DNA of 62,178 bases, the filler included, from Kipferlia bialata (taxonomy: Eukaryota): assembly GCA_003568945.1 (NCBI GenBank). It is 4 parts of 4 records of this genome, joined end to end, with 100 filler letters (N's around TTAATTAATTAA, not from the genome) between each part and the next. Parts side by side here need not be neighbours in the genome. Positions count along the whole stretch, not along the records: positions 1 to 16,910 come from BDIP01000563.1; 3 more parts are not named here. The stretch is one strand, 5' to 3'. The notes under the pieces were generated by a model. It made no database searches. It had not been told where the DNA came from and saw only the letters and a list, made by a program, of their open reading frames with translations. Each line of letters starts with the position of its first letter. The first letter of the stretch is position 1. Below, piece by piece: positions 21-60,315 of the stretch. Position numbers and translations under genes: made by a program.

Positions 21-1564
21 CAATGCATAAGTACTGGCCAGGGGAGTATGTATTCGTATATGCCACAATGGTGACCCGGAGGGTCACGCTGCACTAGTAT
101 ATATATATACATGGTATGCTATACACATATATACATATGCTGCTATACTTACATACCCTTTGGCTTCCTGGTCTTCCTCTCTGCCCCCCTTGGCTTCCAC
201 TGACACACATATATACACATACACTCTAATTAATAATAGACGTACCCTTTTGCTTCCTGGTCTTCCTCTCTGCATCCCTTGGCTTCCACTGACACATATA
301 TATATGTATATATCCTATATATATATTTATACCTAGAATACTATACATATATGTGTATTCTGTACAAAGACGCACCCTTCTGCTTCCGAGTCTTTCTCTC
401 TGCCTCCCTGGGCTTCCACTGACACAGCATGGTCACAAGGTGCATATGACATACAGAGAGCTGGGGAATAAGGGGGTAGAGAGAGAGAGAGAAGTCAGGT
501 CGGGAAATATCACAGCGTCCATACAGCTGAAGAAAACTAAAATGAAAGAAAGAGGGTATGCATACATCGTACCATAGCCAATAGCACTGCCGGTGTCTCT
601 GGGTGTGTCTGTACATCAGACACTCTGTCATGCACACTGGCCATGTCTAATAGGAGGTCCTCAATGACCTAGGGGATTAGGAATAATAATGAATACATAC
701 AGAGAGAGTATGGATGATATGTACCCATAATGATACATACAATGGTGTATTACTCATGAGCATATCTGACCGAGGTTCTCGAGAGTGTTGAAGATGAAGA
801 GGTAATGAATACATGTCATACCAGAAATATACATAAGATACATAAAGTATACATATAATAATGAGTGTACCTGGCCCAGGTTCTCCAGGGTGTTGAAGAG
901 GTACACATACTTGACGGGCTTCTTCTTATGCAGGCCTGGGGTTACAATTAGTGTATACATACATATTTATAAATACAATATCACTCATATATAGGGTAGG
1001 CTATGAATGTAATTGGGAATATCATGTCTACACTATTACCTTGAGCAGAGAGTGTGTCTCTGTGCATGTCACACATCTCCAGGAGTGCGATACACGCTGT
1101 GACAAAGAGATCCATCTTGTGGGGGGAGGACCTGAGTATGAGTCTCTATATGATTGTAACAAATAGATAGTCTCTATGTCCGTGTAATAAATAGATGATG
1201 AATGCCTTAGAAGGGAGAGAGAGAGATATATGATGTGACAAAGAGGTCCATCTTGTGGGGGGAGGATCTAAGTGTTAGTCTATATGAATATCAATATATT
1301 TATAGGGATACTATAGGTCCTATGTATACCTGACATACATGGGTGATTCTATCTCTGACACACGTAACGTTCACACGTAATACGTACTTATGCAAATGTA
1401 TATTCATAGATATAGAGATAGAGTATTGGCGGGCTAATTAAAATAGTACACATATATACCTGTGGTGTATGGGGAACTCAGTCTCTGACACAAAGTACTC
1501 TGTCTGGCTGTTGTTCTCTAGCTCGGTGCCCAGGCAGGTGTCCATGATGACCTGAAATAAGGGT

Positions 1565-1599
<35 letters not shown>

Positions 1600-4534
1600 A
1601 GCAAGTGTCCATGATGACCTGTGGTTAACGGGTGTAAACATAATCACCTACGCATACAGTATAAATATCAATGTATATATATAGAGAGAGATCAATCAGC
1701 ACCTAACAACTGTCCATAATGACCTATGGAATGTGTGGTACACACAACTTACACAAATACCCATACACATACATATATACCCATACCTCCACGAGTGCCT
1801 CCAGCAGGTGGGTGCCTCTGCCATGTCTGAGGATGGCCTGGGGTGAGATGGATGTAACTATCTATATATGTATATATATATATATATATATATAGACACA
1901 GAGAGAGAGAGAGAGATAGAGAGTACATAGTAACTAGGTGGGTCCCTCTGCCATGTCTGAGGATGGCCTGCGATTAGTTATATATATATAGTTACACACA
2001 TATAGAGGTACGTATATATATATATACTAATGTGCATATGTATGCATCCACGTACCTGCACACATGCCCTAATAGACTCCAGTCCACTGTCACTGCTATC
2101 TCCATCGATGAATGCCAGGAAGGTGTGGATGGTATATATATATATATATATATATATTTATTTATATACTGCACATAGTACCTGCACACATGCTCTTATG
2201 GACTCTAACCCACTATCACTGCTATCTCCATCGATGAATGCCAGGAAGGTGTGGATGGTGGGGGTGCAGATGCGGTGCATGTGGGCCAGGTCCTTGGTAA
2301 GGTACTGATGTCAGTGACTTGTCACAAAGCGTGTTCACACAATCTAATCGTGTAGTATTGTTAGAGTATGGTGCAAATGTGGGCCAGGTCCTTGGTAAGG
2401 TACTGGTGTGAGAGATGACTTGTCACAAATAGTGCAGAAGAAATGTATTAATAATGCGGTGCATGTGGGTTGGGTCCCTGGTAAGGTACTGATGTCAGTC
2501 ACTTGTAGTGACATGTAGTGACAATACATAGTGTATACGTACGAGGATATTGCAATGTATATGGTTAGGTCCCTAGTGAGGTACTAAGGTTAGAACTCGT
2601 GTTGAGACGGTCCAATAGTAGGCCCCTTCCCTGCTGACCTCTGGGTCACAGTGCACCAAGCAGTATAAATACCAATATACAACAGTATATAGCTAGTATA
2701 AGAAAATATATATATATAATATATAATAGTATACCTTAAGTGTACTGGCCCCTTCCCTGCTGACCTCTGGGTCACAGTGCACCAAGAGCGACAGGGTCTG
2801 CTTGATGGCCTCGGGGCAGGTCCTAGAGGGTAAGTATAGGGAAAGTACTGCAATTATCAAGCACTAGATATACATATTTATATGTACTCACTTTGTGACA
2901 TCTCCGTGCACCACCTCCAGGTAGACACAGTCCTCCAGCTGAGACTGCAGGTTCTGGTACAGCTCCTCAGAGGAGGTCGTGACATGGCTTGGGGTTAGAC
3001 TGTTGAGACAGCGATAGTAACACTGGTGAAAGAAGGAAAACTGAGCCAAAGCTACAATTGTGTTTGTACGGAAGTCGTTTGAGACATTGCTTGGTGGTAG
3101 AAGAGAAATTGATACCCTGGTACCTCTCTTCCATTAGGTCTCTGTTCTTGCGCCCTTTCCTCTTGAGTCTGCCAGACCTGGGGGGTAAGATAGCTGCAAA
3201 GAAGAGATATAGAAGAGATATAGAAGAATATTGACTTGTATGTGAAAGGCATCATTATTCTTACTCTCTCATTACAATCATCATATGTTGATGATTACAA
3301 ATTTCTATAAATGCATTTGTACCTAGTTGTCTCCTCCTCCTCCTCGGCCTCCCGCCTCTCTGCCTCAGCAGCCACGAGGGCCCTGGTCTACAAGGGTTAG
3401 TTACAGGATCGAGTACACAATTGAGACAGTAGCAAGTTCTACGCGATGTCATACCTCCACTACAGTCTCGTAGAGGTTATCGAGTACACCCACAGGCACA
3501 GTCAGCAGGAGAGGCAGTTCGTTCAGACCACAGACACGCTTGGAGTTACGGCCTGAACGTAAGCACTATATGACAAATATGTGTATATTTGAGTAAACAC
3601 GAGATGTATAACACATGTATCTGTCTCCTTGGTGGGTCTGGCGACTGACATCTATAAATACTATTCTTATACTTATGATACTACCAATATGTATGTATTA
3701 TATATATACCCTATGTACACACCTGTCTCCCTGGTGCGTCTGGCCACTGTTACATATATATACACAATATATATATATATATACTATACTCTTCAATATA
3801 CACTATCAATACATATATATATATATGTACTATCCATGTACCTGTCTCCCTTGTGCGTCTGGCCACTGGTATCACCTCCTCCTCTCTACCCTCCTTGCCC
3901 CTCTTACTCTTCCTGCCCTTCTTCTTGGGCTGCACGGGCTGAAATGAGTGTGTTGTACATGTACACACACACAATTACAATAATAATTACAAATAGAATA
4001 TGTGTTCAATTACCTGTTGTTGTTCTCTCCTCCAACACATCATACTACATCACTCAAACATGAAAGTATACGTATGCAACCACATACCTCAAACACCCCG
4101 TTCAAGTGCTCCCCGGCCATCAGAGCCGCATTGAGGAGAGACCCAGCCATCTGAGCACACCTAGAGGGTAAGGCATGAGACACACACGCATATATATACA
4201 TAGGTGCACTAGTGTAGCTCTATCCATAGTGTATATGCATTGAGGAGGGACACTGCCACCTGGGCGCTGGGGGTGAGTCATTATATACATATTTACACAT
4301 ATACATGTACGTACTGTTCAGGTGGCAATACCTCTGACACACTGGCCACTAGAATATATATACTAATATACATATTGATATACATATATGTGTATATATG
4401 CATGTATGTATATACACATACGTACTGCTCAGGTGGCAATGCCTCGGAGACACTGGCCAGCAGTACCCTGGCACCCTCGGGATGGATGAGACCGTACTTG
4501 CAGATGGACTAGGAGTGAGAATATATATATAGTA

Positions 4535-4567
<33 letters not shown>

Positions 4568-4775
4568 AGAGAAACACGATGATATCAACTACCCACCTTG
4601 AGCTTATTCACTATAAAAAACTATGGACGAGGACTCAGAATAATCGCACACAATATTGACCACGATATGATAACAACATATAATATATATATAATATATA
4701 CATATAATATGTAGTGCATATCCCCACCTTAACCAGCCTGGACGAGGACTTGAACTTCTTGCAATACTAAACTAT

Positions 4776-4819
<44 letters not shown>

Positions 4820-5602
4820 CTACCATTACTATACTATGATATGTATATCTGTATAGTTCAGGAATGACTCCCACCTTGACCAGCCTGGACGATGACTTGA
4901 ACTTCTTGCCATCCTGGGGTTAGGAATACAGATATACCATATATATATATATATATATATATAACAGTTTCATGATACTGATACTGATACTTGAACTCCT
5001 TGCCATCCTTGGGGGTGAGACACGTAGATATACCATATATATATATATAACATCCTGGGGGTGAGACACGTCAACTGATAGAGACATGTATACACACTTA
5101 CAGCTTCATACGCAATTGACACCACGGGGTGAGGTAGGCAGATGGAATAAGAGGAAGGATTGTATATATATTCAAATGCATGTATGTACCCACCATACAA
5201 ATATTTGACATGTAAACATATGAAAGCCATTGATGAACTGAATCTTCGAAAGTGTGTGTGTTCTAATACTTAAGAAAGACATGAAAAGAAATAGAAATAA
5301 GAATTGTGTATTGAAAATAGAATTAAAACTATTCTTTTACACTTACCGCAGTCTTGTCGTACACCAGTCCCGGTATGAGAAGGGCAACAAGGGCCTTACG
5401 CAGCTCGGAGTTGCGCCTGATACATTAGAGAGAGAGAGAGAGAGAGAGGATGGTTGGCTAAGGGCAACAAGGGCCTTACGCAGCTCGGAGTTGCGCCTGA
5501 CACATCAGAGAGACTGTCTTCATGCCGCTATGCTGACATTGGATATGGTAGGTTCGTAGAACGCTGATCTGTACCTGTTCTCGTACAGACATGCTATATA
5601 CC

Positions 5603-5635
<33 letters not shown>

Positions 5636-8600
5636 CATACTGATCTGTACCTGTTCTCTTACAGACAGCTCAGCAGGTCATTGACAGATAAGAGTCTTTG
5701 AATACTTATGAATAGATAGTATATAGTCATTTATCCTCTCTCTATATATAGAAAGATACAATGACCCACCTGTTCTCGTACAGACAGCTCAGCAGGTCAT
5801 TGACAGAGACCAGCTCACCCAGGGAGTATCCCTAGGGTTAGTGTATGTAAGTGATATATACAACATACACACATAAATGGAATGCATTATACTCTATGAA
5901 AGAGACCAGCTCACCCAGGGAGTAGCCCTATGGTAAGGGATGATATATGATATTCAATACACACTATATACACATATATGGAATGAAATATAGAGACCAG
6001 CTCACCCAGGGAGTAGCACTAGGGTTAGCCAGAGCATAAGATACTATACACATCACAATTTCGGAAGGTACATGAGAAGACACCCACCTTGGAGTATCAT
6101 CATTATATATATGTATATATATGTAGTGTGCATCTATACCTTGGAGTACTCCTCCAGCAGTCTCACATAGGCCATGGAGACCTCGGGAGACCTGTCCCTG
6201 GTATAAGGGAGGTAAGAGAGAGGATAGCAGATTCAACATAGTATTATATAGGCAAATGCAGAGATGCAGAGAGCTGGGTACAATTATACATACCGATCCC
6301 CATCTCACTATACATATATGTGAGAATATCTATACTACGTACTGCAGAGCCGTTGCCATGACCGTGCTCTTGACTGCCATGAGGTGGGTCTTGGTCAGTT
6401 CTCTGGGGATTAGAACCGCTCAGTTAGTATATAGTTACACTTGTAAATAGTCTGTGATGTATATAATGTAGATACCATAGAAAACAACCGGAAGATCATG
6501 CATAAATACACTAACCTACTGAAATAGTTTCCAAGGAGTGTCGTGACGGTATCCAGAGAACAATAGCATACAGCTAGTATACACACAGAAAGAGAGGGCT
6601 ATATATACCTGCTGAGAGGGTTACCAAGGAGTGTTGTGATGGAGTCCAGGGATAATATATACTGTAAGCCATTAGAAATGTACCATAGCAATCCCAACAA
6701 ACGTGTATACACATGCCTATTACCTACTAAGAGGGTTTCCAAGGAGTGTCGTGATGGAGTCCAGGGACAGACGGCGGACAGGGGCAGAGGACCTAGGGTT
6801 GAGACTACTAATGGGTTGAGAGACGGAAACAAGAATTGAAGGAGGGACAAATGAAGTGGGAGACCAACAGAACAATAATGCTGAATATATATATATATAC
6901 GTAGAGAGAGAGAGACAGTACCTGTCAACGGTCAGTGTGGTCACAAGCTGCTTGAGCACCTTCTGCTGGGGGGTCAGATACAAAGGAATACAATCATATG
7001 TACACATACAAAACACTGTACACATATATATGTACATATGTGGGCTGCTTGAGCACCTTCTGCTGGGGGGTCAGACAACAAAGGATACGAAATAGTAAAC
7101 TTATGAGCAAACGGATACCTTCCCATTATCGAGTGAGTCCCAGAACAGGGAGAGATCCCATCCTACACAATCCCACTAACACACACTCACACTAAATAGT
7201 AATACATATATACAACATACCTTCCCGTTGTCGAGAGAGTCCCAGAAGAGGGAGAGAGGCCTCCCGATGCCACCGGCCATGACAGCACGGACCTGGTATT
7301 AGGGGTGTAGAGGGAGAGAGAAAGAAGGTAGAGAGAGAGAGACCACACAATGGGGTATTAGGGGTCCAGGTGAGCCATGAGAACAAGACAGTGTAGTGTA
7401 TAGTCAGGCTATAAAAGTGCATGTACCCGCAAATGATAATAATGTAGCGTATATGTATACCTTGGCTGCGCTGTCCTGCATGAGTGTCAGCACCATGGAT
7501 GTCTGCTTGACAAGGGATACAGGGGTGGGGACTGAGATGAGAGGTACATAGAGAGAGAGAGGGAGGGAGAGAGAGAGAGAGCCATGGATGTCTGCTTGAC
7601 AAGTGAGACAGGGGTGGAGACTGGTGGGAGATATATGCATTATATATCATACATATATACATATACATATTATACCTTCTGCCAGGGGTATGATGGAGTA
7701 ATGGCAAGACACATGGTATATATACATAATTATTAGCCATATACTTTATACTCTATCCTCACCTTCTGCCAGGGGTATGATGGGGTATGCCTAACAACGG
7801 AGTATATCCACTCATACCCTATCAATAAAATAGAACATATACTATATACGCTGCAGTCGTACCTTCTGCCAGGGGTATGATGGGGTATGCCTAACAACGG
7901 AGTATACACTCATATACTATATACATAAGAATATACACTGTGTATGGCGATATATATCACTCGTACCTCTGCCAGGGGTATGATGGGGAATTGCAAGACA
8001 CTTGGTATGTACAAAATAATAAGAAGCCATAAACACTACATCACCCCTACCTTCTGCCAGGGGTATGATGGGGTAGGCCTCGCACAGCAGCATGGCACAC
8101 CTGGGGGTGAGGTATAGACAAACACACACACATATATATATATATATCCTAATACTATGGGGAGAGGGAGAGAGAGATAATGCCTCGCACAGGAGCATGG
8201 CACACCTGGGGTGAGGTATACCAACAGCAGAGTACATATACACACACACATATATATATGTGTGTGTATCCTAATACTATGGAAAGAGGGAGAGAGAGAA
8301 AATGCCTCGCACAGCAGCATGGCACACCTGGGGGTGAGAGAGAGATATATATATATAATGGAGAGAGGAAGAGAGATAAAGAATGTGAGAGAGACCGACA
8401 CTATACATACAAAACTGTACTGTGCCTAGCCCTAATCATTGGATTGACAGCTGCGTGTACCATCAGCAGGGCAGAATCTCTCTCTCTCTCTATATATATA
8501 TACATATGTAAGTATATAGAGACATAAACATACAATATACCTTGCCCTAATCATTGGATTAACGGCCGTGTGTGCCATCAGCAGGGCAGTCTCTCTCTCT

Positions 8601-8787
8601 CTTAATATATACATATATATAACATTCATTATAATATACCTAGCTCTAATCATTGGATTAACAGCTGTGTGTGCCATCAGCAGGGCAGGCCCATAGAACA
8701 GGATGTTGTGGAACTGGTTCGAGATCTGGGGTCAGAGTAAATGTGTTATTATATATATATATATAATATGTATATACTATACACAGA

Positions 8788-8826
<39 letters not shown>

Positions 8827-9415
8827 ACCATAGAACAGGATGTTGTGGAACTGGCTGGAAATTTGAGGTCAGTATATTTGCCCCCATGGTATATGTGTAT
8901 ATATCACAGTTGCTTTGACAAAAGATGCATGTGCACATTCTACTAACTCACCAAAGATCCTGTCCTTGACTTGCCAGCCTCTGTCCTGACCCTCTCCCCG
9001 TGGATGAGTCTCTCTCACCCTCTCTCTCTCTATATATATATAATATATACATATATATAAGTACTCTCATATACTCACCAATGACCCAGTTCTTGACTTC
9101 CCGGCCTCTGTCCTCACTCTCTCCCCGTGGATCAGTCTCTTCAATAGGTCGGCACTTCTGACACAGACCTTGGCACTACCGCTAGAGTCAGAGATTATGT
9201 GCATACACAAATATATATATATATATATATGGATAAGTCTCTTGAGCAGATCGGCACTCCTCACACACACCTTGGCACTGCCACTGGGGGGTTAGGGTGT
9301 CTATATATAGATACTATCTATATATATGTATTATATATATATATATATAGAGAGAGAGAGATAATATAGCACTCCTCACACACCTTGGCACTACCACTGG
9401 GGTAAGAGGTTATGT

Positions 9416-9449
<34 letters not shown>

Positions 9450-10923
9450 GGATGAGTCTCTTGAGGAGGTCGGTACTCTTCAGACACACCTTGGCACTGG
9501 GGTTAGAGTATATAAATATAAATATAATAATATATTAATAATTATTACTATATATTATTTCGACATATTATATTATGTTATATTACTACATTGACCAGCG
9601 CATAGAGGGCCAGGTATGTGCATAGTGTTAGACAAGAATATGTATGGTGTCAGGCTTTACATAGTGTATGCACTATACACTCACCGTAGCACTGACTGCA
9701 GCAGAGTGACTGTCAACTCCTTGGCAGCAGCCTGGGTCTCCTCCTAGGGGTCAGATGGGTGTATGTAGAATATGTAAAAATAGTTGATGTATACAGTGAA
9801 TATAGGTATATATACATTGTCTCAGTATATACCTGCGACAGTGCGTGGTTTGTGCTCAGACTGAGGACATGCTTCAGGGCAGGGATGATGGCCTGGATGT
9901 GAGGTAAGAGTAGCTTCGTCAAGTACAGAGACACACAATATCATTACATCTGTGTATATATGCTGAGGACATGCTTCAGGGCAGGGACAATGGCCTGACG
10001 TAAGGAGAGAGTATACAGATGAGATATATAGATGATAGTCATATACATATATGTGATGCTGAGGACATGCTTCAGGGCTGGGACGATGGCCTGGGGTGAG
10101 GGTACTGCATATACAATAAGAATATTCAATATATACACAAACTATATACAGACACTACATGCTTCAGGGCCAATGGCCTAGGTTGAGGGTAAGCGTATAT
10201 ACTATAATGCATGGTGACCCGTCAATCCTCATACTTGTACAGAATGGACATACAAATCTTACCCCAATGCTAGTCTTGTTGACATTTGCCACACCAGGGC
10301 CCTCTCTCTCTTCTTCTTTTCTCTCTCTCCCTACGTGTATAGATACACCATATACACCACACTTACCCCAATGCTAGTCTTGTTGACATCTGGTGACACC
10401 AGGGCCATCCTCATGTCAACGCCAACAGAGCCTGATGTAAACAGTAATATAGATAAATATTGTGCATATATATATACTGGTAATGTATTATGCTATGTAC
10501 AGGGCCATTCGCATCTCAACGCCAACAGAGCCTGGAGCAAACATACACTATACACAAGAATTAGGAGCATATACAAATGAATACAAACCACAAGAGAGAT
10601 TGTATAGAAGAGCCATCCTCATATCAACCCTGACAGAGCTTGATGTCAATAGTATATGTACTACAATAAGTAGGAGAATATGTACCATGTAGCTCGAACA
10701 CCAGCTGTGTCCCCTTCATTTCATTTACATTAATATCATTAATATATATATCAAGAGTAAACAATATGTATAGAATTACTATATTTACTATAGAGAGTCT
10801 ACCTGGCATCATGAACAGTTCATACACCAGCTGCGTCCCCTGCTTGGTCCTGGTGACATCGGGTCTGATCAGGGTGTAGAAGCCAAAGACGGTCTTGGAT
10901 CTTTCCCTAGAGAGAGTTCTGAT
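21..10923 (-). CDS. NCAPG2: Condensin II complex subunit G2 (CAP-G2/NCAPG2)-like HEAT-repeat protein; multi-exon, 5' end missing (before or in the gap at 11351), terminal exon uncertain
   Basis: Manually spliced GT-AG exons give ...ILFYGPALLMAHTAVNPMIRARCAMLLCEAYPIIPLAE...LTLMQDSAAKVRAVMAGGIGRPLSLFWDSLDNGKQKVLKQLVTTLTVDRSSAPVRRLSLDSITTLLGNPLSR...DRSPEVSMAYVRLLEEYSK. This is collinear with the recalled CAP-G2 core (LYxPILWRxLxxxNxxVRxNAxxLFxEAFP...LLxDxxPxVR...WE...LAxDxSSxxVR...LDN.LSH...HDxSEKVRVAF). Matched from memory, not by search. Confidence 0.7.
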
Positions 10924-11828
10924 CTAGGGTAAGAGAGAGAGAGAAAGAGAGAGAGAGTCTGATGAGGGTGTAGAAGCCAAAGGCAGTCTTGAACCTCTCA
11001 CGAGAGAGGGTTCTAATCTAGGGTAAGAGAGAGAGAGGCAGAGAGAGAGAGAGAGAGAGGTGATAAAGACGACGTCAGATGACTGACGTGACAGGAACCA
11101 TATATAGTATATACATAATGTTCATAACAGTGGAAGGAGAGGGCTGAATGGGAGAGGGGGAGAGAGAGAGGGGGGAAGGAGAGGGAGGGGAAGAAGCCCA
11201 ATACAAGATGGGGATGAGAGAGTTGAAAAGGTGAGAGAATAGGGAGAGAGAGAGAGACAAAGACATCTACAGAGAGAAGACACAACATGATGTCGTGAGG
11301 AGGAGAACGGGGGGGGGGGGGGGGGACTATCGACTATTTTACATGAGTCCNNNNNNNNNNNNNNNNNNNNNNNNNNNNNNNNNNNNNNNNNNNNNNNNNN
11401 NNNNNNNNNNNNNNNNNNNNNNNNNNNNNNNNNNNNNNNNNNNNNNNNNNNNNNNNNNNNNNNNNNNNNNNNNNNNNNNNNNNNNNNNNNNNNNNNNNNN
11501 NNNNNNNNNNNNNNNNNNNNNNNNNNNNNNNNNNNNNNNNNNNNNNNNNNNNNNNNNNNNNNNNNNNNNNNNNNNNNNNNNNNNNNNNNNNNNNNNNNNN
11601 NNNNNNNNNNNNNNNNNNNNNNNNNNNNNNNNNNNNNNNNNNNNNNNNNNNNNNNNNNNNNNNNNNNNNNNNNNNNNNNNNNNNNNNNNNNNNNNNNNNN
11701 NNNNNNNNNNNNNNNNNNNNNNNNNNNNNNNNNNNNNNNTTTTTCCCCCCCCTTTTTTCCCCCCCCCCCCCCCCCCCCCCCCCTTCCTCCACTCTGGTAA
11801 CTCTCCTCTACCCTTCCCTACCCCTCAG

Positions 11829-13573: not shown

Positions 13574-13962
13574 ATGTCAATTCGCCGCTACCAGCCTGGC
13601 GACGAGGAGGACTGTCTCTCTGTGTGGGAAAACTCTACGCGTCTCGCACATGGAGCCTTCTTCTCCGAAGAGTTCATAGCGAAGGAGCGAATCAACCATG
13701 CGACGTTCTACCTCCCCAAACTTGACACCTGGGTCTATGTCGACGACGGACACGCTGTGGGGTTTATGGTGCTGATAGGGAACGAGGTGGGGGGCCTCTT
13801 TGTACACGGGAGCCATCACGGTAAGGGGTATGGGAGAGCCCTTGTCGATAAGGCCAGAGACATGCACGGCAATCTAGAGGTCGAAGTGTTTGAAAACAAC
13901 CCAATTGGCAGGCGGTTCTACGATCGGTACGCCGCTTCCTCCCTTATATATATATATATCTG

Positions 13963-13996
<34 letters not shown>

Positions 13997-16910: not shown

Positions 16911-16954
16911 NNNNNNNNNNNNNNNNNNNNNNNNNNNNNNNNNNNNNNNNNNNN

Positions 16955-18159: not shown

Positions 18160-18404
18160 TCTACACTCACTATTAGGCTGACCGTGATTATTCTGATATG
18201 TATATGATACTGATACTGACCTCATTCTCTCTCTCTCTCTATGTGTGTGTCAATCTCCTCACTATAGGCTGACCGTGATGTCCTGATGTGTGAGACCAGT
18301 GACTTGAGGCACCTCCTTGGGAACCTATCTCTGTTCAGGTACTCTCTCTCTCTCCCCTAACCCTCTTATGTCAGAAATGTGTTGGACTGTGGCAGTGGTG
18401 TCAG

Positions 18405-18441
<37 letters not shown>

Positions 18442-21068
18442 GTACACCCTTATGTCAGGAGTACCTTGGACTGTGGCAGTGGGGTCAGCCTGACATTCCT
18501 GGAGCAGAAGCCAGGTATCATATCATATGCATTTATATATGTGTTAGTATATATATATATATGTGTGTATACATACATATATATATATATATATGTGTGT
18601 GTGTGTATAGATAATCCTGGAGCAAGCCAGGTGCATTATCGTAATAATCATGGGACCGGATCATATACTGCTGTTTGCGCTCACTGTCAGACACCCTTGA
18701 GAGTGATCATTGACACTCTGTATTGAATGCATTCTGTTACATCTAGTATTATAGTATATGTACTGTTTGGGTTAAAGTATATGTACTCACTGCCAGACAC
18801 CCTTGTGAGAGTGGCCATTGATACTCTACATATCTAGTACTCAAGTTCCTTAAAAATTGTATGAGTATAGTATCCTCTATATATACCAGTTGGATATGTT
18901 CTATCTAACTCCCAGACACCCTTGTGAGAGTGGCCATTGAGCTTGCATTCCTCATGGACATTGCCAGGTACTATATATGTATATATATATACATATATGT
19001 GTACAGTGTATTAATATAGATATATACATTGAGCTGGCATTCCTCATGGACATAGCAAGGTATAGTAAGAGTATATTTATGTATATGCACTGTATCATAT
19101 CATATCATAGCATATTGGTCCAATGGGAAGGGTCCCTCTTCGCTCTTGAGTAACTTCCCTCTACCCTAATTGACACATATCCTACATCCTTACTTCTCTC
19201 CTTCTACACCCTAGGGTGAAGGTCATATATCCTACACCCAAACCTCTCCCTCTTCATTCACTTCACCCTTAATGTCAGGGAGGAGAACACCCGTGCCAAG
19301 CTGTCCCTCTGTGAGTCACTGCTGGAGGTATATACTCTCTCTCTCTCTCTCTCTCTCAACCTAATTGCACTCCAAGTACAGCCCTCTCTCTCCCTCTCTA
19401 TCTCTCCCTCTAGCCCCTAATTCTCAGGTCCACTCCAACATCCGTCTGACACACACTGCACTGGGGGACCTAGCAAGGGTCTGCAAGGTATTCATACACT
19501 TACATATATATATGTGTATATGCATGTGATACAGAGAAGGTATCATTATTAGTATTAGTGTATTGTTCACTGCACTGGGGGACCTGGCAAGGGTGTGCAA
19601 GGTACATAGTAGAGTATTTGTATTATAGTGTACTATATATACTATGTATTCAATTTTGAGTGTACATGGTGGTATATACACTGGCCAGGGTGTGCAAGGT
19701 ATGCACTATATACCATATGAATAGTGTAAATATATCGCACATCATTTCTATCTATATTCTCCCCCAGGGCCTTGCCGACTTCTGTGGGGATGGGGGTTAC
19801 TAGAAGAAGCATATATATATATATACATATACACATATATATAATTATGTATGTGTGTTTCAATATGATACTCATCTTCAGGGCCTTGCCGACTACTTCT
19901 GTGGGGGTGGGGATATATCACCCATATATAGATATATATATAGAGATATATAGAGATATATATAGATATAGTGTCAATGTACTCATCCTCAGGGCTGATA
20001 ACAGTTGTATTCTTGTTTATATATATACCGATATTTATCGATATCCTTACCCCCAGGGCCTTGCTGACTACTTCTGTGGCGATAGGGATATATCAGCCAT
20101 ATATGTATATATATATGCATGTGTTAATTGTATATGGATATCTTTATATATAGCTCTCTCTAACTGCTAGGGCCTTGCCGACTACTTCTGTGGCGATGGT
20201 GGTTATTAGAAGAAGCAAATATTGATTGTTATATATGTACATTGTTGATATATATATTATCAATACCAGTGTACTCACCCAGGGCCTTGCCGACTACTTC
20301 TGTGGCGATGGTGGTGAGCAGTATGCATTCCTCGGACTCAAGAGGTATGTGTGTGTTCAATGACAGTATCAGTATCAGTTCTTCTGTATATGTTGAATAT
20401 CCAAACATTTGTATATGCTGTACTATGTACAAAATATATTGTATAGTGCAGTGTCCAGTATGCATCTCCTCGGACTCAAGAGGTGCGGATAGATTGTAAT
20501 GACATATATACACAAGGACTATTGTATTATGTAGATGGGTGAGCAGTATACATTCCTCGGACTCAATAGGTATATATGTACAATGGCGTAATCTACATTT
20601 GTTCATATATGTGAGTAATCTGGGACCGTCCCTATGCCCGTCAGTTCTTTCTCTACTCTCTCTCTCTCTCTCTCTCTGTCTCCCATTCTTTCTTTCTCTC
20701 TATGTGTATACATACATTGTTTCTCATACCAGACTCAAGATGCTTGACAAGGCAGACAGCCTCCATGCCCTATTATACTCTCTCTCTCTCTCTCTGTATA
20801 CATATATGGATATATGAATATACATATCTTACACTAGACTCAAGATGCGTGACAAGGACAGCCTCCACGCCCTGTGCTCCATGTACAGACAGGCCATCAG
20901 TGGCACAGAGACTGCATGGTGTGTGTTTACATAATACTCAGGCAGAGACGGCGTGGTGTGTGAACGTATACATATATACATATATACTATACTATATTTA
21001 TACACGTAATATGAGTAGTTTATGTATATATACATGCCCTGTGCTCCATGAACAGACATATACTCCAT

Positions 21069-21109
<41 letters not shown>

Positions 21110-21906
21110 CCCTAGGGATGAGAGGCAGCGTGCACAGATGGAGGAGAGATACGACGCAAGGTACAATGAGTAATTAATATGTACAATAATAGTATTGACA
21201 ATGATAATAATCATTGTTGTGTATGTATTTATATCTACATGCTCACTGGTAGAGGGAATGTCTACTCCTAGGACTACCACATGAGACATATTCACAAGTA
21301 TCTACGCTTCTTTCACATATTTGATTTGTGTTAAAATCATGAATGATATTTAGTACTCACAACCAGGGAGAACGTCTACTCCTGGGACTACCACATGAGG
21401 CTCCTCCCTCTCCTGCCCCATGTGCCAGACCTGTTCTACGTGTCATTCAGGTATAGAGAGAGAGAGAGAGAGTAATGCTATTAGTATTGAATATGATATA
21501 TGTGACACACTACGTGTCATTCAGGTATGAGGGACTATATGTGTTACGTATTGATTAGTATACTATTCGGATATTCATTGGTATGTATTGTAGTACAGTG
21601 ACTGTATTACTAATGGAGGGCATTGATTTGTCTATAGAATGTGTTAATGATACGGTATGTCACATGTTTGTTAATTATCTAACCCCTCAGGAGCTCTGGC
21701 CTTGCCTTCCTGGGTGACTACACTCAGCCACCAGCAGCATTCCTACAGGGTACGACATATGTATATAGAAGAGTACATACATATATATATGTATACATGT
21801 CCTTCTATTTATATATGATGACTACACTCAGCCATATGCTACTATATATACATGTCACTATGTATCCATCAACGCCCCTGAGGAGTGGAGGACCCTGGAT
21901 GAGGAG

Positions 21907-21937
<31 letters not shown>

Positions 21938-23545
21938 CTAAATGATACATTAGTAGTCTATCTAACCTAGCTATTAATGCCCCTGAGGAGTGGCGGAGCC
22001 TGGAGGAGGAGAGAGAGGGAGAGGCAGAGGGAGAGGGAGAGGGAGATGGCAAGGAGCGGCGACAGGGGTTCACCAGGAGACAGAAGGTCACTCCTGAGAG
22101 CAGGTATGGTATATATGTATATATAGTATAGATACAAATGATATATATATGTATATATGTGTATATATGTATGTATATATATAGAGGACAGGGGTTCACC
22201 AGGAGACAGAAGGTGACACCGGAGAGCAGGTATAGTGTTATATACACACACACACATATATATATATATAGAAGTTTTAGAAGGGGACACCGGAGAGCAG
22301 GTATAGTGTATGTTGATGTACTCTGACCACCCAACTATGTATACAAACCTCATCAACTGTATATGGTGTATGCAGCCTATATATGTATATGTATGTGGCC
22401 TCTGACCCCTCAGATACCATGCCAGCAATGGCAACCCCACCCTGTTTGGTGTGAACTGCAAGCACTTGAAGTATGAGGTAACGCCATAGATCCACACTGA
22501 TACATTAATACTTTTGTATATCCGTTATTGTTGTATATTGTTACAAGAGATCCCACCCTGTTTGGATGGAACTGCAAGCACCTCAAGTATGAGGTAATGA
22601 TACATTTACATTGTATACACTACAACAAAATGACCTGTGGAGACCCCCCCCCCTCTCTCTCTCCCCCCCTTCCTCTTACACTAGGGCGATGTGACCACTG
22701 GTCCCTTCCTCTCTCTCTCTCTCTCCCTTCCTCTAACACTAGGGCGATGTTACCACCGGCCCCTTCCTCAGCTATCTCTCTTTCTCTCTCTCTGCCCCCC
22801 TTCCTCTTACACTAGGGCGATGTAACCACTGGTCCCTTCCTCAGCTACGGCCTCATCCCATACCCATACGTGCCAGACAAGATCAAGAAGGTGATATATA
22901 TATATATATATATCTATGCATCTATATTTGTAGCTTATATATATATATATATATTAATAGGACTAGTATAGCTACGGCCTCATCCCATACCCATACGTGC
23001 CAGACAAGATCAAGAAGGTATTTATATATGTGTATATAACTATATAGCTATACGCGTCAGACTAGATCAAGAGGGTGGGAGAGATACATATATGCTACAC
23101 GTATAGTAATATCAATGATGATAGATGAACTAGAGTTGCCATCAGACGCATTGCTTTATCTCTATCTCTAGACCCTTATTCTAGGCCCTCTCTGAGTTCC
23201 GATGCCATCTCTCTCTCTCTCTTTCTCTCTCTCTCTACCCCCTTATTCCAGGCCCTCTCTGAGTTCAGATGCCAGCGCAACCCAGTCACACCGGAGCCAG
23301 TGCACCACTCAGGTATGTGTGTCTCTCTCTTTACACATAAACACTTAGATAGAAGAAAGGGGAGAGTGTGTGAGTGTGAGAGAGAGAACAGCTGAAAACA
23401 CAAAACAAATATGATATCCGGTGTCAGAGTATGGGAAATATATGGACTATGTCTAAACTCTGGACGTCCTTGCTATCTCCCTCACTGAATACTTTTTATG
23501 CCCTGGGGATTTTTTACACCCAGGTGATGTGGCCCTTGTCAATGC

Positions 23546-23590
<45 letters not shown>

Positions 23591-23915
23591 ACACCCTTTT
23601 ACACCCAGGCGATGTTGCCCTTGTCAATGCATACTATGCAGCACAGAGGGTGTCGGATCTGGTGGCAAAGGTGTGTGTTCATATCTTGCTCTGTGTATCT
23701 CTAAGTGCTGACCTCCTTTGCCCCTATCTCTGGACAGATCTCTCTCTATATGTGTAGTCATTGACCCAAAGACCTAAGTATGTGTTTCTCTGTGGAGGTT
23801 TATCTAGGTCCTTACCACTCTATCTCCTCTGTCTCTCTCTCACTATATATATATATATAATTATACGTTATATCACTTACCGTAGGGCATGTCCATTGAC
23901 CTGGTCTGTGGCCTC
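17681..23915 (+). CDS. DNAAF3: Dynein axonemal assembly factor 3 (DNAAF3/PF22) homologue; multi-exon, 3' end truncated at a poly-C junction
   Basis: Spliced product MQGQSQAQSYGNKQYWGLGSPIELR...SDLRHLLGNL...LKMRDKDSL...WDERQRAQMEERYDARENVYSWDYHMRL...FRSSGLAF...GDVTTGPFLSYGL...GDVALVN. It matches the recalled DNAAF3 motifs G..WWG.SPA.DL, LK.RERD, WD.R.R...RYD.R....DWD..M.L, TG.AF and GDI.TGPF..FG. Confidence 0.9.
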
Positions 23916-24042
23916 CATCTTCTCCCCCCCCCCCCCCCCCCCCCCCTCTTTCCGCCCCAATCTATTTCAAATTACTACTAGCACAGTCTCTCTATCTACA
24001 TAGGAAATATTCTCCACTCTGTATTATACCCACCCACCCCAG

Positions 24043-26573
24043 GTTGCGTCTCTACAGGCCGACTACGGAGATCTGCTGAAGCGGTTTGAGTCCATCCGCG
24101 ACAACCATGGGCGGACCCTGGCCAGGCTGAAGAGTGTGACTGAGGAGCTGGGGAGGGCCAAGGGGGAGAGGGGGGGAGAGAGGCGGGGAGGGGACGCCGA
24201 GGGGGAGCTGGCTGAGATGCGTGTGATAGTGGACAGCCTGAGGAGTGAGAGGGCTGCCTTAGAGGAGGAGTCTGCCAGACACACAGCTGCTGCCATGGAT
24301 CTTGCCACACAACTAGACAAGGCCAGGGACAGACTGACCAGGGGGGAGAGGTGGGGGGTTCTCCTATATGTTGGAGTGAGAAACATACAATACATGCTAG
24401 TTATCTATCAGTGTATGTATAGACTGTCGTCTGACCCCAGGGACTCCATGGAGCAGGCTGAGCGTAACAGGCTGGAGAGAGCGGGACTGGAGGCCGAGAT
24501 ACAGGACCTGCGGCGAAGGCTGAGTGCTGCGGAGGCACAGGGACAGCAGTCACAGGTGGGGACATATACATGTGTATACAGATATGACAATACAGGTGGA
24601 TTGGAGAATACAGGTGTGTGAATATTGTCATGGATGTTTCATTTCCCTCTGTTTGCAACTCCTTCTGACCCCAGGTTGACACTGGCAAGCTCCTTGCCCT
24701 GAGTGCTGCCCACACCGTGGAGTCTCTGCAGGCTGACCTGGTCTCTGCCCAGTCCAGGGAGGAGGAGGGTGCTAGGGTGAGGGCAGACCTAGAGGCAGAG
24801 GTGGCCACCCTCAAGGCACGGGCATCTGAGGCTGAGGCCAGGGTGGAGAGTCAAGCTGAGTCCATCAGCAGTCTGGAGACACAGAGAGAGAGAGACCAGG
24901 CACGACTGGCTGCCCTAGAGACAGAGGTCTCAGAGGCATGCACAGAGAGGGAGGCCGCCCTTGCCAAGGGGCTAGGCCTGCAGACACAGCTCGATGAGGC
25001 CAAGGCCAGGGTGGAGGAGTATAGGGAGGCAGGGGATGCCCTGCGTGCACAGCTAGGGGAGGCCCAGATGGGGGCAGACGCGGCCAAGGGGAAGCTGGTG
25101 GCGGCAGAGAGGGAGGTGGAGACCATGAAGATCAGGGAGACTGAGAGAGAGAGGGCGATGGAGAGGGAGAGAGAAAGCATGGCAGAGAGAGAGAGAGACA
25201 TGCGGCAGCGGCAGGACGAGCTGAGCCGGCGTGGGTCTGTGTCAGGTGGGATGATGGGTATGGGCATGATGGGACAGGGTAGACAGAGCACAGAGACACC
25301 CCCAGGCATGGGTATGGGTATGGGTGCTGGCAGTGAGAGACCCCCCCAGTCGAGGCTGACGCCTGACATCCCCTTCCAGATGCAGGAGAGGGGCAGGAGG
25401 GGGGCAGAGAGGCATATGCCCCACCAGTTCATGCTGAAGAGCGGTGAGGCAGACTCGATGGCCCTGTCCCCTGTGATGGAGGCACCCAACTCCAAGACAC
25501 CTGCCCAGAGGGACATTGGGGCCTGGGGGCAGCCCCCCTCCCGCCCCATGTCCTCTGTGCAACCACCCTCTGCCAGGCTAGGCGGTATGGGCATGGGTGC
25601 ATGGGACGTGTCAGAGACCTCACAGGCTGGCACACCCGTTGGGTCAGTGCCCCCTAGGTCAGCGTCCATCAGGGCTGCCACACCCCTCTCTGCCTTTGCA
25701 GACAGTGCCAAGGCCATACCCCAGCAGGTGGTGCGGCCACCGGTGGTCGAGAGCATTCCCTTATGCCCTTGTAGTGCCGTGTCAGTGCTGTTTGAGCCCT
25801 CCGCTGCCTCTGCGTCCCATGCGTCCCACTACCTCTCGCTGGACTTCTTCAGCCTCCCCCCCTTGGTGTCTGCCCTGGGTCTGCCCCCTAGGAGGTGGTC
25901 GGTGGTGTCGACACCTGTCCCGCTATCCCCTCTCTTCCTGCTGTACCTCAGGGAGAGTGCTGCTGTCCTGACTGCGTGTGTGCCCTCTCCCTCTGGCACT
26001 GTGAGGGTGTCCTGCCCCATACCCCTGCTGGGGCTGCTCTCCAACCCCTCAGTCTCCCACCCTGTGTCACTGGTTGATAGGGCATGCGGTCTCTCTCTGG
26101 AGGGGACCCTCACCCTGTCTGTCACCCCTAGGGTGGGCCAGGGCGTGGTGGCTGTATTACTGCCACCCCTTCCTCCTTCCCCCTTGATGCTATCGCTGGG
26201 GGTGCAGAGGGTGAGGTCGAGGCCTGGCAAGCAGTCCTGCGGGCTAGGGCCTGAGTGTGCCGGTGTGGCCACCCTGCTAGGGTCTGTGGAGGGTAGGATG
26301 GGCCAGGGCGAGGGGTCCACCATATCCATCAGGGAGCGGTATGACCCCCACTCCAGACTGGGGTTGATATCGGGGTCTGTCCCCTTTGTCTCCCTGTCCA
26401 TCTCTCTGCCCAATGGTGACACTGCCTCTGCCAGGGTAGACAGACTGGGCTGGGACGAGCTGTGCTTGGTGACTGGGCCAAGCCAGCAGGGCATCACCTT
26501 GACTGTGGCCCTGGCTGTACGGGGGGAGGAGGTGGGAGACGCAGATATAGCTATACGGCTGGAGAACGGCTGA
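24043..26573 (+). CDS. Coiled-coil protein with C-terminal C2-like region, RPGRIP1L/MKS5 (fantom)-like; 5'-partial; exons about 24043-24350, 24441-24555, 24675-26573
   Basis: Long heptad-rich E/A/R region, then a low-complexity linker, then YLSLDFFSLPPLVS...LFLLYLRESAAVLT...IPLLGLL...GTLTLSV. The last part resembles the RPGRIP1-family C2 pattern (DF.....T...FL.YL....L.L...I.L..LL...GTL). Family assignment from memory. Confidence 0.5.
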
Positions 26574-34213: not shown

Positions 34214-45092
<10,879 letters not shown>

Positions 45093-46045: not shown

Positions 46046-46917
46046 TTATATATCTATATATACACACATTATACCTCTTATCTATACTATACTTCATAAC
46101 GAGTCACGCACGACATACTCATTCATGTATATTTTACTTACGAATCAGTCACAGAGCTAATCTTTCTCTCTGTCTCTCGCTCTCCTTGTATATATAGTAT
46201 AGAGTCTCAGTAGTAGTATATAATAAATACCATTATAATAATTTCTAAAATTGTAATAATATATAGAAGTATTAATTGTATAGATTCTCTGAAGTATCGC
46301 CCATATAGCAACACCCATTGAATACCTGCCCCCCCCCCCCTTTCCAGTATATCACTATTCTCACACATATTTCACGTAGTTCTCCTCTCTCTCTTGCTCA
46401 TACTCTCCCTAAGTACCTATTATCCTTACCATTGTTCTCCTTTTCCTTTTGCTTCTCCTATTTATACTTGCATATATTTATTTGTAGTTATGTTTCATAC
46501 ACACATGTATATACATTTATATATACACATATTTATACTTTAATTATTATATATTTCTGAGTATTATTTAGATACCCTTATCCTTATCCTCCAGGCAGAG
46601 ATTGAGAGGTCCTATCCTCACCTACTCCCTGGGAAGAGTCTTGACCACCTGCTGGTCATGGCAGAGCAGGTGTTGTAAATATCCATAATATACAATAACT
46701 CAGTATATTTGACTTCAATGTATATACTGTAATTTTATACTATTACTCTGTATGGTCTATCTATGAGGCTTGACCACCTGCTGGTCATGGCAGAGCAGGT
46801 AATATATGTATATATACATATATATATGTATATGAATTCATATTATCACTATTTCTGTACATACTGTGTATACTCCCTGGGAAGAGTATTGACCACCTGC
46901 TGGTCATGGCAGAGCAG

Positions 46918-46953
<36 letters not shown>

Positions 46954-49900
46954 CCCGTCTCTCTTTCTGTACCTATTTCTATGTCTATGTTATTGTAGGT
47001 GCATTACTGTTTTCAAAAGCATTCTCTATTTACTCCATATAGAGCAGGTAATGTATGATGCTTTCTCTTACTGTTATATTTGAATACCGTGTACTCTGTA
47101 CATGTACATATATTGCCTTTACGCATTCATACTACTTCTAGATACGTACTTTTCCTTAACACTATTTACATATGCATATGTGTTGTAGTGTACATGTATT
47201 GATGATGAAATTGATGTGTCTTTCCACTCTCATTCTTAGATTCTGAAAGGCCTTTCTGAGCTGCACAGAAACAACATAGCCCACAGGGATATCAAGGTAC
47301 ACGAGTATATTCCTATTCATGTTTTGAGTAATACATACCCCTTGTAGTAAATATAACAACACAGAATAGAACACATCTATATTTTTCCACTACTTCATCG
47401 TATAGGTATGTCTGTTCCGACCAGTATTCTGCTGTCTCTCTGTGTGTATCCACGGTATATCTATGTACTGTTTGTTTATGTCGTACATCTATTTGTTGTC
47501 TTAGCCTGCCAACCTCATGCTATTCTCTCTCTCCAGCTCTCTTTTCCTCTCTCTCTCCCTCTCTGTCTATATATGTATATATATATGCATGTGTGAATAC
47601 ATACATATATGACTAACTCTCAGCCTGCCAACATCATGGTATTCTCCCCCTCTCTTTTCCTCTCTCTCTCTCTATATATTGACATATGTATACATGTGTT
47701 TATACATATACCACTAACCCTCAGCCCGCCAACATCATGGTGTGCAAGGTGCCTGGATCAGATGTACCATGCTGCAAGCTGATAGACCTTGGCCTCAGTA
47801 GGCTGTTCAAGCCTGACGAGGTATATACATTAACTATATTGTATGGAATAATTCATGTTTCTCTTTCTTATTCTTTCGCTCTCTCTTTATAGTTTACCAT
47901 AGATATATATATATATATACATGTTTATACGTGACAAGGTATATATCTGTCATATATACATTTGTGTGTCTTTAATAACCCAATTTGGCATTTTTGGTCC
48001 AAATTACATGTGGCCCTACATACTGTCACTATAGAGTCATATATTACCACAGGGCAGCTCCATAACTCATTATATACATATATAATACTTAATGTTAATA
48101 TGGTAATATATAGATATTACATATATGTGAATATTGGTACCTCTACATGGGTGTACAATTATGTATATTACATAACAATCTATGTAGTCTCTTACCACAG
48201 TCCATGATCAGTAGCTTTATATTATATATTGTTAATAAATATTAATTAATTATAATTAATTTGTATTATTAATAATGTGTATATATATGCATTAATACAG
48301 TCCATAAGAATTTATGAATACGTATATATATTCCACCTGTGTCTAACCCCAGTCCATGATCAGTAGCTTTGCCGACGTGTCCCCTCTCTACAGCGCCCCA
48401 GAGGTACATATGTATATACATATAGTTACAGCGGACGCGTATATATAAATATATAAATACATATGCATATACCTACATATACTAACACACATATATGTGT
48501 GTGTCTACAGCGCCCCAGATGTACATGTAGTGTGACTGTATATATGTGTATGCAGCAGAAGCCTTATTATATGCGTTAGTCACATATAGTGTGTGACTGT
48601 GTATATGCGCATACAGCAGATGCCATCACAATACAATGTATGCTTGTCTCTTGCATTCACTAACTCCTTAGAAGTTCACTGGTGGCTATACCCTTTCCGT
48701 TGACATATGGGCACTGGGAATCACTCTGTCTCAGGTATGAATCATACCTTATATCATACTATATGATATAAATACATATATGTGATATACCTACATACAT
48801 ATATGTGATATACATACATACATATATGTGATATATATACATATGCTGTATATACATATATAGGGGATCACTCTGTCTCAGGTATGATATTTATATACAT
48901 ATATCAATGTATAGACGTGGAAGTATTACTACATACATCCATAAAGGGTTCCAAAACTACATCAATTAATTATTACACCCTTTGCATATCTCGAATTTCA
49001 ATAACCTATTTTGGAGTGATTATGCCCGAATAGTTTATCTTTGTATGTCTACAAATGGGCCCTGGGCACAATATGTCATGTATGGCATGGTAATATATGC
49101 ATTTAGTAACTATCTCTGACCCCTAGCTGTGCACCTCCAAGTGTGTGTTACACAAGGGCACTGCGGACCACTATGTTACACCATCATATATAATAATTAC
49201 AAATAATTCTAAGTGCATTGCTTTTTCCTCTGACTCCTAGCTCTGCACCCCCAAGTGTGTGTTGGACTACCCACAGTCTCTGTCGGCAGTCAGAAACCGT
49301 CTCATGAGAGGGGATCCTAGGTATTAAGGGTCTAGAGAGACAGAGACAGAGAGAGAGAGAAATTTATATATATTCACCGTCTTGTGAGAGGGGATCATAG
49401 GTGAGCTCTGGATGCACCTTTCTAAATGGGTCTTGATTGTATCTACTTATACTGTAGGCATTAAACGTTCTCTCTACTTTCACACACACATATATATATA
49501 TTGTCTGTCGTCAGTCAGAAACTGGTGTGCCCTTTTGTGGTAGGACCTAAAGTAACATATATATATATACTATTTACATATACACATACATAATGATACT
49601 AAGCATGTGTTCATCCTTCGATACCATATCATACCCACTAACCTTAACCACTAGAATTCTGCAGCATATACATATATGTATATATCTACATACTAGGCCT
49701 AGTATGTTATTATGAATGTGTTTATACATTTTTGTGTCTACTGTCACGATACCCACTAACTTCAGGCGTCTTACTGATCTGGAGACGGGTGTCCCAGGCC
49801 TCGCCAGAGTGATCAACAGTATGCTGGAGGTACTTATGTACATATATATATATATACATCTCTTCGGATACGTTCTATATATTCCATAGTCGTACACACA

Positions 49901-58900: not shown

Positions 58901-60281
58901 AGTATATGATTGAAATACAATCATATGTATTGAAGTTGAATTGAATATGTACATGTAATAATTTGTTATGTCATTGCCACACTCTGAATAGTCAGGAGAA
59001 TAATTCTAAAATATATACAAATCTGCAAAAATGTATATATACTAATTATTAGCTAATTGAGTACATGAATCTTAGCGAAGAGTCAGGAGGGACACAGTCT
59101 AACACAGGTCAAATATATATGTTACATATATATAGTCTTAAAAATTCTGAGTACTAGGTAATGAACACTTAACCGATAGTATGACCCCTTATCAGAAACA
59201 GGCATACATACCTCCCCCTCATATAGGCGTCTGCACAGGCCTAGGTCTATCAGCTTACAGCATGGGATGTCACAGCCAGGGACCTTGCAAACCATGATGT
59301 TGGCGGGCTGGGCGTGAGAGGAATGTATATACACACATATTTACCTGAAGAAAATTGTGTATATACGTATATATACTATTATGTATTTGTATATTGATGT
59401 ATACTTTGATGTCCCTGTGGATGATACCCAGGCTGTGAAGTCTCTCTCTCTCTCTATATGTATATATGCCATACAATTTATCTCCTTAATACTCCTAAAC
59501 ATAATGTATATGTACGTATATTATTGTGGATACCTTGATGTCCCTGTGGATTATACCCAGACTGTGGAGTCTCTCTCTCTCTATTTAAGTACATATACAT
59601 AACTACAGAGTATACTCACTGATACTTCTATATATATTACTATGTATTTGTATATATATGAGTACATACCTTGATGTCCCTGTGGATGATGTTCAGGCTG
59701 TGCAGTCTCTCTAGACCCATCAGCATCTGGTGTGAGTGAATTATATACACACATATACACATATATATGTATAGTTACAGTGTACCCATCAGCATCTGAT
59801 GTCACCTATATATATACATATACTATACATTATATAATGTAATATGTATATGATATATAATATATAGACTGTGCAGTCTGTCCAGACCCATCAGCATCTG
59901 GGGTTAGTTATACCTATACATATATATGTATATATACACACACACACATATATTTTTATATATACATATATAAATGTATGTACTAGACCCATCAGCATCT
60001 GGGATAAGAGTATACTCTATACATGAAAGAACACACACACACACATATATATACAAATATATATATATGAATATATATATATATGAATATATATATGAAT
60101 ATATATATGAATATATATATAAATATATATATATACCTGTTCAATCATGACAAGCAGGCCAGGCAGACTCCTCCCAGGGCGGAGGTGACTGGGATGAGTA
60201 TTGATACTATATAAATACACAATACATAACATACACTACTAGAAATATCGACCATTGTACCATAAACACATACATAAATAC

Positions 60282-60315
<34 letters not shown>

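Follow-up and report, generated by a model that had tools for sequence, protein, structure and literature searches.

Half-exon copies in the introns of Kipferlia bialata as a likely record of displaced alleles

Partial copies of exons, each consisting of a splice site and the adjoining part of the exon, accompany about half of the exons examined in a 62,178-nucleotide stretch of DNA from Kipferlia bialata (assembly GCA_003568945.1), referred to here as the window. These copies, which we call echoes, are real and duplicate splice junctions in tandem. They are pervasive in the window and are skipped by the main mRNA where RNA was checked, and a description of them is apparently lacking in the literature. 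As far as tested, they do not currently serve any system of splicing or rearrangement. Echoes are likely to be halves of once-working alleles, left in the intron when a very different haplotype supplied today's exon, and their arrays most likely record, within introns, alleles that were displaced. Judging from sequence comparison, we lean towards an origin by recombination, unequal or aborted, between haplotypes whose silent sites differ by about 25-30%, which would have created or renewed the echoes as duplications of splice junctions.

Kipferlia bialata is a fornicate, and a reduced spliceosome is described in the accessible part of PMC6679479. Linkers of the form N44-TTAATTAATTAA-N44 at 16911-17010, 33893-33992 and 45223-45322 mark the window as a set of separate scaffolds and not a single stretch of chromosome. 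Six gene models, comprising 128 curated exons, were built by coordinates (genes A to E, with E as two pieces; Table 1). The chains of genes A, B and C are stop-free over 782, 479 and 1510 codons. The exons of gene A within 573-3938 are confirmed by an RNA contig, and the gene is putatively Condensin-II-G2-like, going by a motif. Four short exons of gene B, used to look for its family, gave no Pfam match. Gene C is kept in frame only with a predicted GC donor at 40497/40496 (- strand). The model of gene D is consistent with protein P0001, and its long exon (50820-51614) matches NCBI KIPB_003096 of K. bialata at 100% identity; the end of its last exon was not placed at a donor, and only the upstream echo was counted for that exon. 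Further intron-containing genes lie outside the models at about 11.8-13.2, 26.5-29.3 and 29.4-33.6 kb.

Table 1. Positions of the modelled genes and of the exon of gene A examined in detail, with its echoes
Feature	Position	Strand	Description
Gene A	157..11017	-	31 exons modelled; 23 with echoes, 49 matches; inner-echo dN/dS 0.076
Working exon of gene A (focal exon)	9079..9181	-	103 nt, phase 2, reads GSAKVCVRSADLLKRLIHGERVRTEAGKSRTGSL
Innermost 5' echo of focal exon	9229..9283	-	own branch-point/AG acceptor; 18 codons; ends in (AT)n
Second 5' echo of focal exon	9369..9396	-	acceptor, 28 nt, 2-nt deletion
Outermost 5' echo of focal exon	9449..9498	-	first 6 nt gone; 3 replacement codons
3' echo of focal exon	8952..9013	-	20 codons, own GTGAGT donor, (AT)n(AG)n before it
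Spacer, inner 5' echo to focal exon	9182..9228	-	(AT)n, then working acceptor
Gene B	18268..24555	+	17 exons modelled; 12 with echoes, 26 matches
Gene C, CHD-type remodeller (chromo, SNF2, helicase C)	34583..45092	-	10 of 53 exons with echoes, 14 matches
Gene D, protein kinase	46595..52088	+	9 of 10 exons with echoes
Gene E, putative kinase paralogous to D	53292..61685	-	11 of 17 exons with echoes; modelled as two hand-built pieces flanking a gap

Each exon was compared with its two adjacent introns by an ungapped, codon-blind search, which is blind to echoes with indels and to those with fewer than 13 net matches. The search returned 130 matches at 65 of the 128 exons (adjacent introns, 63,088 bases), whereas unrelated introns totalling 266,789 bases gave 3 at the same score threshold. 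The 16 matches without an anchor at an exon end were excluded from most counts, leaving 114 anchored echoes. Their polarity is strict. Upstream matches are anchored at the exon start in 56 of 62 cases, carrying the acceptor and the 5' part, and 0 of 62 are 3'-anchored; downstream matches are anchored at the exon end in 58 of 68 cases, carrying the 3' part and the donor. Where an intron has both kinds, the 3' echoes precede the 5' echoes (16/16). The splice dinucleotides are retained in 51/56 (AG) and 53/58 (GT) of the anchored echoes. Inner echoes have a median period of 107 nt, and echo periods showed no frame-keeping preference (remainders mod 3 of 41/39/34). Introns with echoes are 3.5 times longer than those without (medians of 321 and 91 nt) because they carry them. 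Echo density is uneven among genes (compare A and C in Table 1), and 5' and 3' echoes co-occur significantly across all genes (p 0.008) and not inside gene groups. In a self-comparison of the window, the stretches at 11.1-18.0 kb and 23.6-35.0 kb were free of local repeat pairs. The intron-containing genes at 11840-13200 (+) and 26500-29300 (-) likewise have none, making echo density strongly gene-dependent.

The ends of echoes often touch microsatellites. A (CT)n run follows 13 of the 56 5' echoes (background 5%) and an (AG)n run precedes 6 of the 58 3' echoes (background 0.8%), the two being strand-mirrored, as at 8541-8612 and 8790-8825; sense-strand (AG)n runs in echo-free introns number 0/12. 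This mirrored junction mark suits a break-repair origin, and selection on splice signals could also shape it.

The original prediction concerned one exon of gene A, in the 31-exon stop-free chain with AG/GT ends, and described it as flanked by a copy of its 5' half with its own AG and a copy of its 3' half with a GTGAGT donor. This layout was confirmed as described. The silent-only divergence claimed for it is exact: 9 of 18 codons differ in the innermost 5' echo, with 0 replacements, and 9 of 20 in the 3' echo, all 18 changes being synonymous, which has a probability of about 4e-8 even if only the exon is constrained (silent share 0.39). Two further upstream copies, missed earlier, lie within the range then considered (8952..9500). 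The codons of the second 5' echo agree with those of the inner echo and not with those of the exon. The outermost has the replacements V>L, R>K and A>T, and shares with the inner echo a common free end, RLIH followed by (AT)n; the spacer beside the exon also reads as similar to the one behind the outermost echo. Since these two copies carry replacements, a 6-nt loss and a deletion, echoes do decay. The idea that the two halves overlapping at RLIH spell a single recoded exon did not hold, as the Leu codon in the overlap is CTG in the exon, CTT in the 5' copy and CTC in the 3' copy, so that there is no clean split. The focal pair (pS about 0.6) is in the upper tail of a window-wide class of echoes with a mean pS of 0.27.

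The dN/dS of intronic exon-end copies, the measure proposed for judging the original prediction, was computed for the window's 128 exons and came to 0.149 (pS 0.264, pN 0.047), well away from about 1, and to 0.157 when unanchored matches were added. In the 114 anchored echoes (1132 codons), differences at codon positions 1, 2 and 3 number 60, 48 and 225. The nonsynonymous share of 122/333 compares with the 0.62 that a dead copy next to a constrained exon should show (p 1e-20), and the silent share of changed codons, 185/293 (0.63), with 0.32-0.39 simulated for a dead copy with the same detection. The bias is stronger close to the exon: dN/dS is 0.117 in innermost echoes (dS 0.33, dN 0.039) versus 0.236 in outer ones (Fisher p 0.005; p 0.0009 within multi-echo arrays). 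Transversions are few at twofold sites (13/401, versus 80/499 at fourfold sites), and therefore the constraint acts on amino acids. The same counts rule out third-position hypermutation as the source of the silent bias; GC bias was ruled out by changes in the GC and AT directions (65 vs 61), and error-prone copying filtered by selection was ruled out on probability.

For exons with at least 2 echoes on one side, a three-way comparison (280 codon comparisons) assigned private changes to each lineage. Silent and replacement changes number 14/3 in the exon, 19/4 in the inner echo and 14/25 in the outer echoes. The inner echo therefore diverged from both of its neighbours while coding, and the star-like pattern of private changes points to several working versions, with 8 of the 280 codons showing three different synonymous states. 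Outer echoes have since decayed. Stops are found inside 5 of 114 echoes, 2 of these 5 being innermost. The earlier claim that echoes are or were used as coding sequence thus divides: past constraint is upheld by the private changes of inner echoes and by the retained AG and GT, and current use is not supported, an RNA contig skipping 11 of 11 echoes in 573-3938.

Per-echo pS ranges continuously from 0 to 0.67 without two peaks, and shows only mild overdispersion (chi2 104, df 75). The intron flanks of echoes are homologous, at 44-64% identity beside the splice site, and are far more diverged than the exonic part. Near-identical flanks were found for 5/56 of the 5' echoes and 0/58 of the 3' echoes, and flank identity is uncorrelated with pS. 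A 78-nt 3' echo at 2056-2133 is a mosaic tract, with 14 exact codons at its free end and 12 codons with 6 silent changes on its splice side.

Two working half-exons can diverge silently only in different chromosomes, because one gene uses one of them. As a rough estimate from the dS and dN of inner echoes, the donors would have been about 0.25-0.3 apart at silent sites and the echoes would be much younger than that divergence. Among the routes listed in the original prediction, the retention of divergent allelic copies fits best, echoes having been constrained while they diverged. Haplotypes about 25-30% apart at silent sites would have good homology in exons only, and pairing would occur mainly there. 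A break or crossover in an exon would be repaired on the other haplotype by either of two routes. The first would be one-ended invasion, copying past the splice site for about 80-140 nt, and then end joining, which would yield a single echo of the polarity seen, with diverged flanks and a short spacer. The second would be unequal exchange between an existing echo and an exon, demoting a working half-exon while the old free end stays. The old half-exon and its old splice site would be shoved into the intron, splicing would settle on the two sites that enclose a whole exon, and neutral decay of the echo would follow. Repeated rounds would give arrays with a common free end, in which the youngest and cleanest copy adjoins the exon.

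Successive echoes have a common free end in 12 of 32 cases (3.2 expected), and 6 of 10 arrays of this kind have homologous yet diverged spacers. In inner echoes, silent and replacement changes number 63/11 in the splice-site half versus 37/22 in the free half (p 0.004); this gradient survives trimming of 2 or 3 codons (p 0.04 and 0.002), and in outer echoes it was sought and is absent (p 1.0). The common free ends, diverged spacers and splice-side gradient fit unequal echo-exon exchange, and the gradient is as expected if inner echoes join part of a newly demoted exon to part of an older echo. One-ended invasion, unequal crossover and later exon-limited conversion are not separable with the data of one genome.

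The recombinase Dmc1 tolerates mismatches. In the part of PMC8516963 available to us, metamonads are described as lacking NHEJ, and fornicates as lacking Rad51A and having two Dmc1 paralogs; meiotic genes are conserved in Metamonada, and neither sex nor parasex has been observed directly. A precedent for recombination between such divergent partners is the fungus Schizophyllum commune, in which crossovers between haplotypes 14% apart fall in exons (PMC4209137, in part) and synonymous-site diversity is 0.20 (PMC4576712, in part). The diversity needed in Kipferlia exceeds that figure, so that one has to assume either cryptic lineages that hybridised or a population of record-level diversity. Several observations stand against displaced alleles. 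The overdispersion of pS is below that of a single non-recombining coalescent, and recombination would have only a short substrate in 30-60 nt of about 90% identity. Neither the DNA-like contigs listed for 1-4350 nor two metagenome scans for a relative or second strain yielded a donor allele. The scan with one exon of gene B gave 593 pattern matches and that with P0001 gave 36, with 0 confirmed in either; the P0001 cluster has 1 member.

Read evidence came from two sets of contigs from one sample, aligned to window positions 1-4350. One, X1, is DNA-like, may underlie the window and is thus not independent of it; the other, X2, was taken as RNA by guess and from its spliced contig. The contigs of both sets lose rare variants.

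Echoes might instead be kept for use. One such account, which we consider unlikely though the least so among the alternatives, is a genome-wide conveyor belt, on which half-exons, each with its splice site, would move into introns all the time and now and then return to coding use, selection keeping the innermost echoes protein-true as replacement cassettes; every intron would then archive past alleles in order, some of them still live, in a lineage that has neither NHEJ nor Rad51. A related account, to which we also give little weight, needs no outside alleles: echoes would be selected in-cis backup cassettes, with exon breaks mended by echo-exon annealing or exchange, an echo half promoted to coding often enough to purge replacements, and roles turning over. 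The retained splice dinucleotides, the clean inner echoes, their slightly conservative replacement changes (BLOSUM p 0.04) and the lack of NHEJ (PMC8516963, in part) all suit such cassettes. However, exchange that purges replacements would also wipe out silent differences or the echo itself, and the mean pS implies, by our estimate, exchange at only a few times the mutation rate. The near-neutral private changes of outer echoes and the stops, two of them in innermost echoes, also argue against cassettes, as does the lack of any echo-to-exon joint among the X1 joints listed in 1-4350, from which rare variants would be lost.

A single ancient allopolyploid or hybrid event, followed by homeologous recombination and loss of one subgenome, would leave echoes as scraps of that subgenome. 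It would produce silent-only divergence and diverged flanks in one step, with no standing hyperdiversity needed. In several arrays, however, private silent changes occur on all three sequences, and the three-state codons likewise call for more than two versions; the continuous spread of pS is also at odds with one event. We regard this explanation as improbable.

That echoes reach mRNA by alternative or non-canonical splicing at the overlap, a route raised in the original prediction, appears very improbable. Echoes do retain splice sites and reading, and the RNA contig covers 573-3938 and not the focal exon, rare variants being lost from such contigs. In X2, a single 3700-nt spliced contig has 1017 nt over 573-3938, which equals the sum of 12 modelled exons of gene A. 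It shows 0 other letters in the 8 pieces listed, has GT-AG joints over echo-bearing introns, uses full exons throughout and passes over all 11 echo matches; there is no depth in echo-only bins. An echo plus its spacer is in frame and stop-free in only 3/41 and 4/41 inner cases, and many exons are echoed on a single side. Where an exon has both halves, they abut or overlap (-3 to 13 nt) in 7/20 cases, versus 5.2-5.3 expected under three nulls (p 0.24-0.25), which rules out abutting halves as a rule. Pointer-like rearrangement, another of the routes raised, is likewise not supported by these counts, and no echo-to-exon joint is among the X1 joints listed in 1-4350, though rare variants would be lost there.

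Ordinary junction duplication between sister chromatids, followed by neutral decay with the silent excess coming from the exon alone, would account for polarity, skipping, the outer echoes and the few arrays with near-identical flanks. It predicts the simulated silent share given above and about 76% replacements among inner-private changes, whereas 0.63 and 4/23 were observed. It is rejected for the inner echoes of the window (p below 1e-8), and as a general explanation we think it more improbable still than use in mRNA.

Least credible of all, to the point of being nearly negligible, is an assembly artefact in which haplotypes or strains were joined in tandem at microsatellites, the refutation foreseen in the original prediction: echo ends do often lie at microsatellites and X1 may be the data behind the window, but X1 contigs of 1.0-1.4 kb span echo arrays with 0 other letters, 0 gaps and an even depth of 360-447 (a single one covers 176-1556), of the words sampled from 1400-11340 X1 contains 0.95, the X1 contigs listed for 1-4350 include no second divergent form of the exons, the RNA contig confirms echo-containing introns of 202 and 328 nt, and polarity is strict.

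The main texts of the open literature searched gave no account of echoes of this kind, whether for Kipferlia or as a class in general, and the strings 'duplicat', 'allel' and 'heterozyg' have 0 occurrences in the main text of the Kipferlia genome paper (PMC5874029). The closest parallel in structure is human CBS c.844_845ins68, a tandem copy of an intron/exon junction in which splicing goes to the distal site and removes the upstream copy, leaving a normal mRNA; gene conversion between the copies has been proposed (PMC2630376, accessible part). Echoes resemble it in being a splice site and adjoining exon part in tandem (56/62 and 58/68) and in being spliced out of a normal mRNA (11/11 in 573-3938 of gene A). 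They differ from a copy born identical and then decaying neutrally, given the 19/4 inner-private changes and near-identical flanks in only 5/114. The CBS case, as described there, is one near-identical 68-bp polymorphism, whereas in Kipferlia about half of the exons are affected, on both sides and in arrays, with a 26% silent-site difference and few replacements.

Heterogeneous duplications such as that of mosquito ace-1 place two alleles of one locus in tandem on one chromosome (PMC6121789, accessible part). The star-like silent divergence in Kipferlia suggests that its tandem copies may derive from different alleles. At ace-1, however, whole working genes are kept by overdominance and both copies are functional, whereas echoes are half-exons with a period of about 100 nt that are absent from the RNA contig, the outer ones decaying. 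In mouse germ lines, tandem duplications and haplotype switches can arise at meiotic breaks through inter-homolog end joining and aborted gap repair (10.1101/2020.06.23.168138); in the part of that report available to us these events are rare, kb-scale and not anchored to exons, with no accumulation shown, in contrast to echoes. A 10-11 nt periodicity, sought in echo periods for comparison with that system, was absent. Schizophyllum commune shares with the displaced-allele reading the recombination of very divergent haplotypes where exons stay similar; its diversity is measured, and half-exon relics are unreported in the accessible parts of PMC4209137 and PMC4576712, whereas that of Kipferlia would be higher and is deduced from the echoes.

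Mutually exclusive tandem exons and the scrambled genes of ciliates also contain duplicate coding pieces under constraint, and ciliate pointers are short repeats at the ends of pieces. Unlike mutually exclusive exons, echoes do not have an acceptor and a donor each: 0/62 upstream matches reach the exon end, and the single downstream match that spans both exon ends (1/68) has no AG at the homologous place. Full mutually exclusive copies that were later halved were ruled out by polarity. Unlike pointers, overlap between halves is no rule, and no rearranged joint is among the X1 joints listed in 1-4350, where rare variants would be lost.

If the displaced-allele reading is true, one genome stores a sample of its past alleles beside about half of its exons. 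No population sample would then be needed to read how diverse its silent sites are, how divergent lineages have recombined and in which order exons were replaced. The reading would also supply indirect genomic evidence that sex or hybridisation takes place in a free-living metamonad, a group in which neither has been seen, as far as the accessible part of PMC8516963 goes, and the divergence involved would exceed that reported for Schizophyllum (PMC4576712, in part). On this reading, echoes show a way for splice sites and intron ends to turn over while intron positions stay fixed. They also pose a question of splice-site choice, with up to four intact acceptors or donors passed over.

Some smaller features of the window were noted. 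The kinase paralogs D (49400-49861, +) and E (57238-56701, -) have one intron in common at 76-82% identity, their other introns being unalignable, which suggests local exchange between the paralogs; the common intron includes a decayed echo with indels, as in neutral decay of an old echo. Sequences at 57749-57803 and 57882-57936, flanking an N gap, are 98% identical and may be an unmerged overlap and no echo. Non-coding tandem repeats at 52500-52970, at most 93-94% identical, have a period of about 105 nt, in the size class of echo periods. Finally, a short gene at 13576-14275 (+), which we take to resemble a GNAT acetyltransferase, has one intron, in which a short acceptor junction is duplicated, near 14070 and near 14177.
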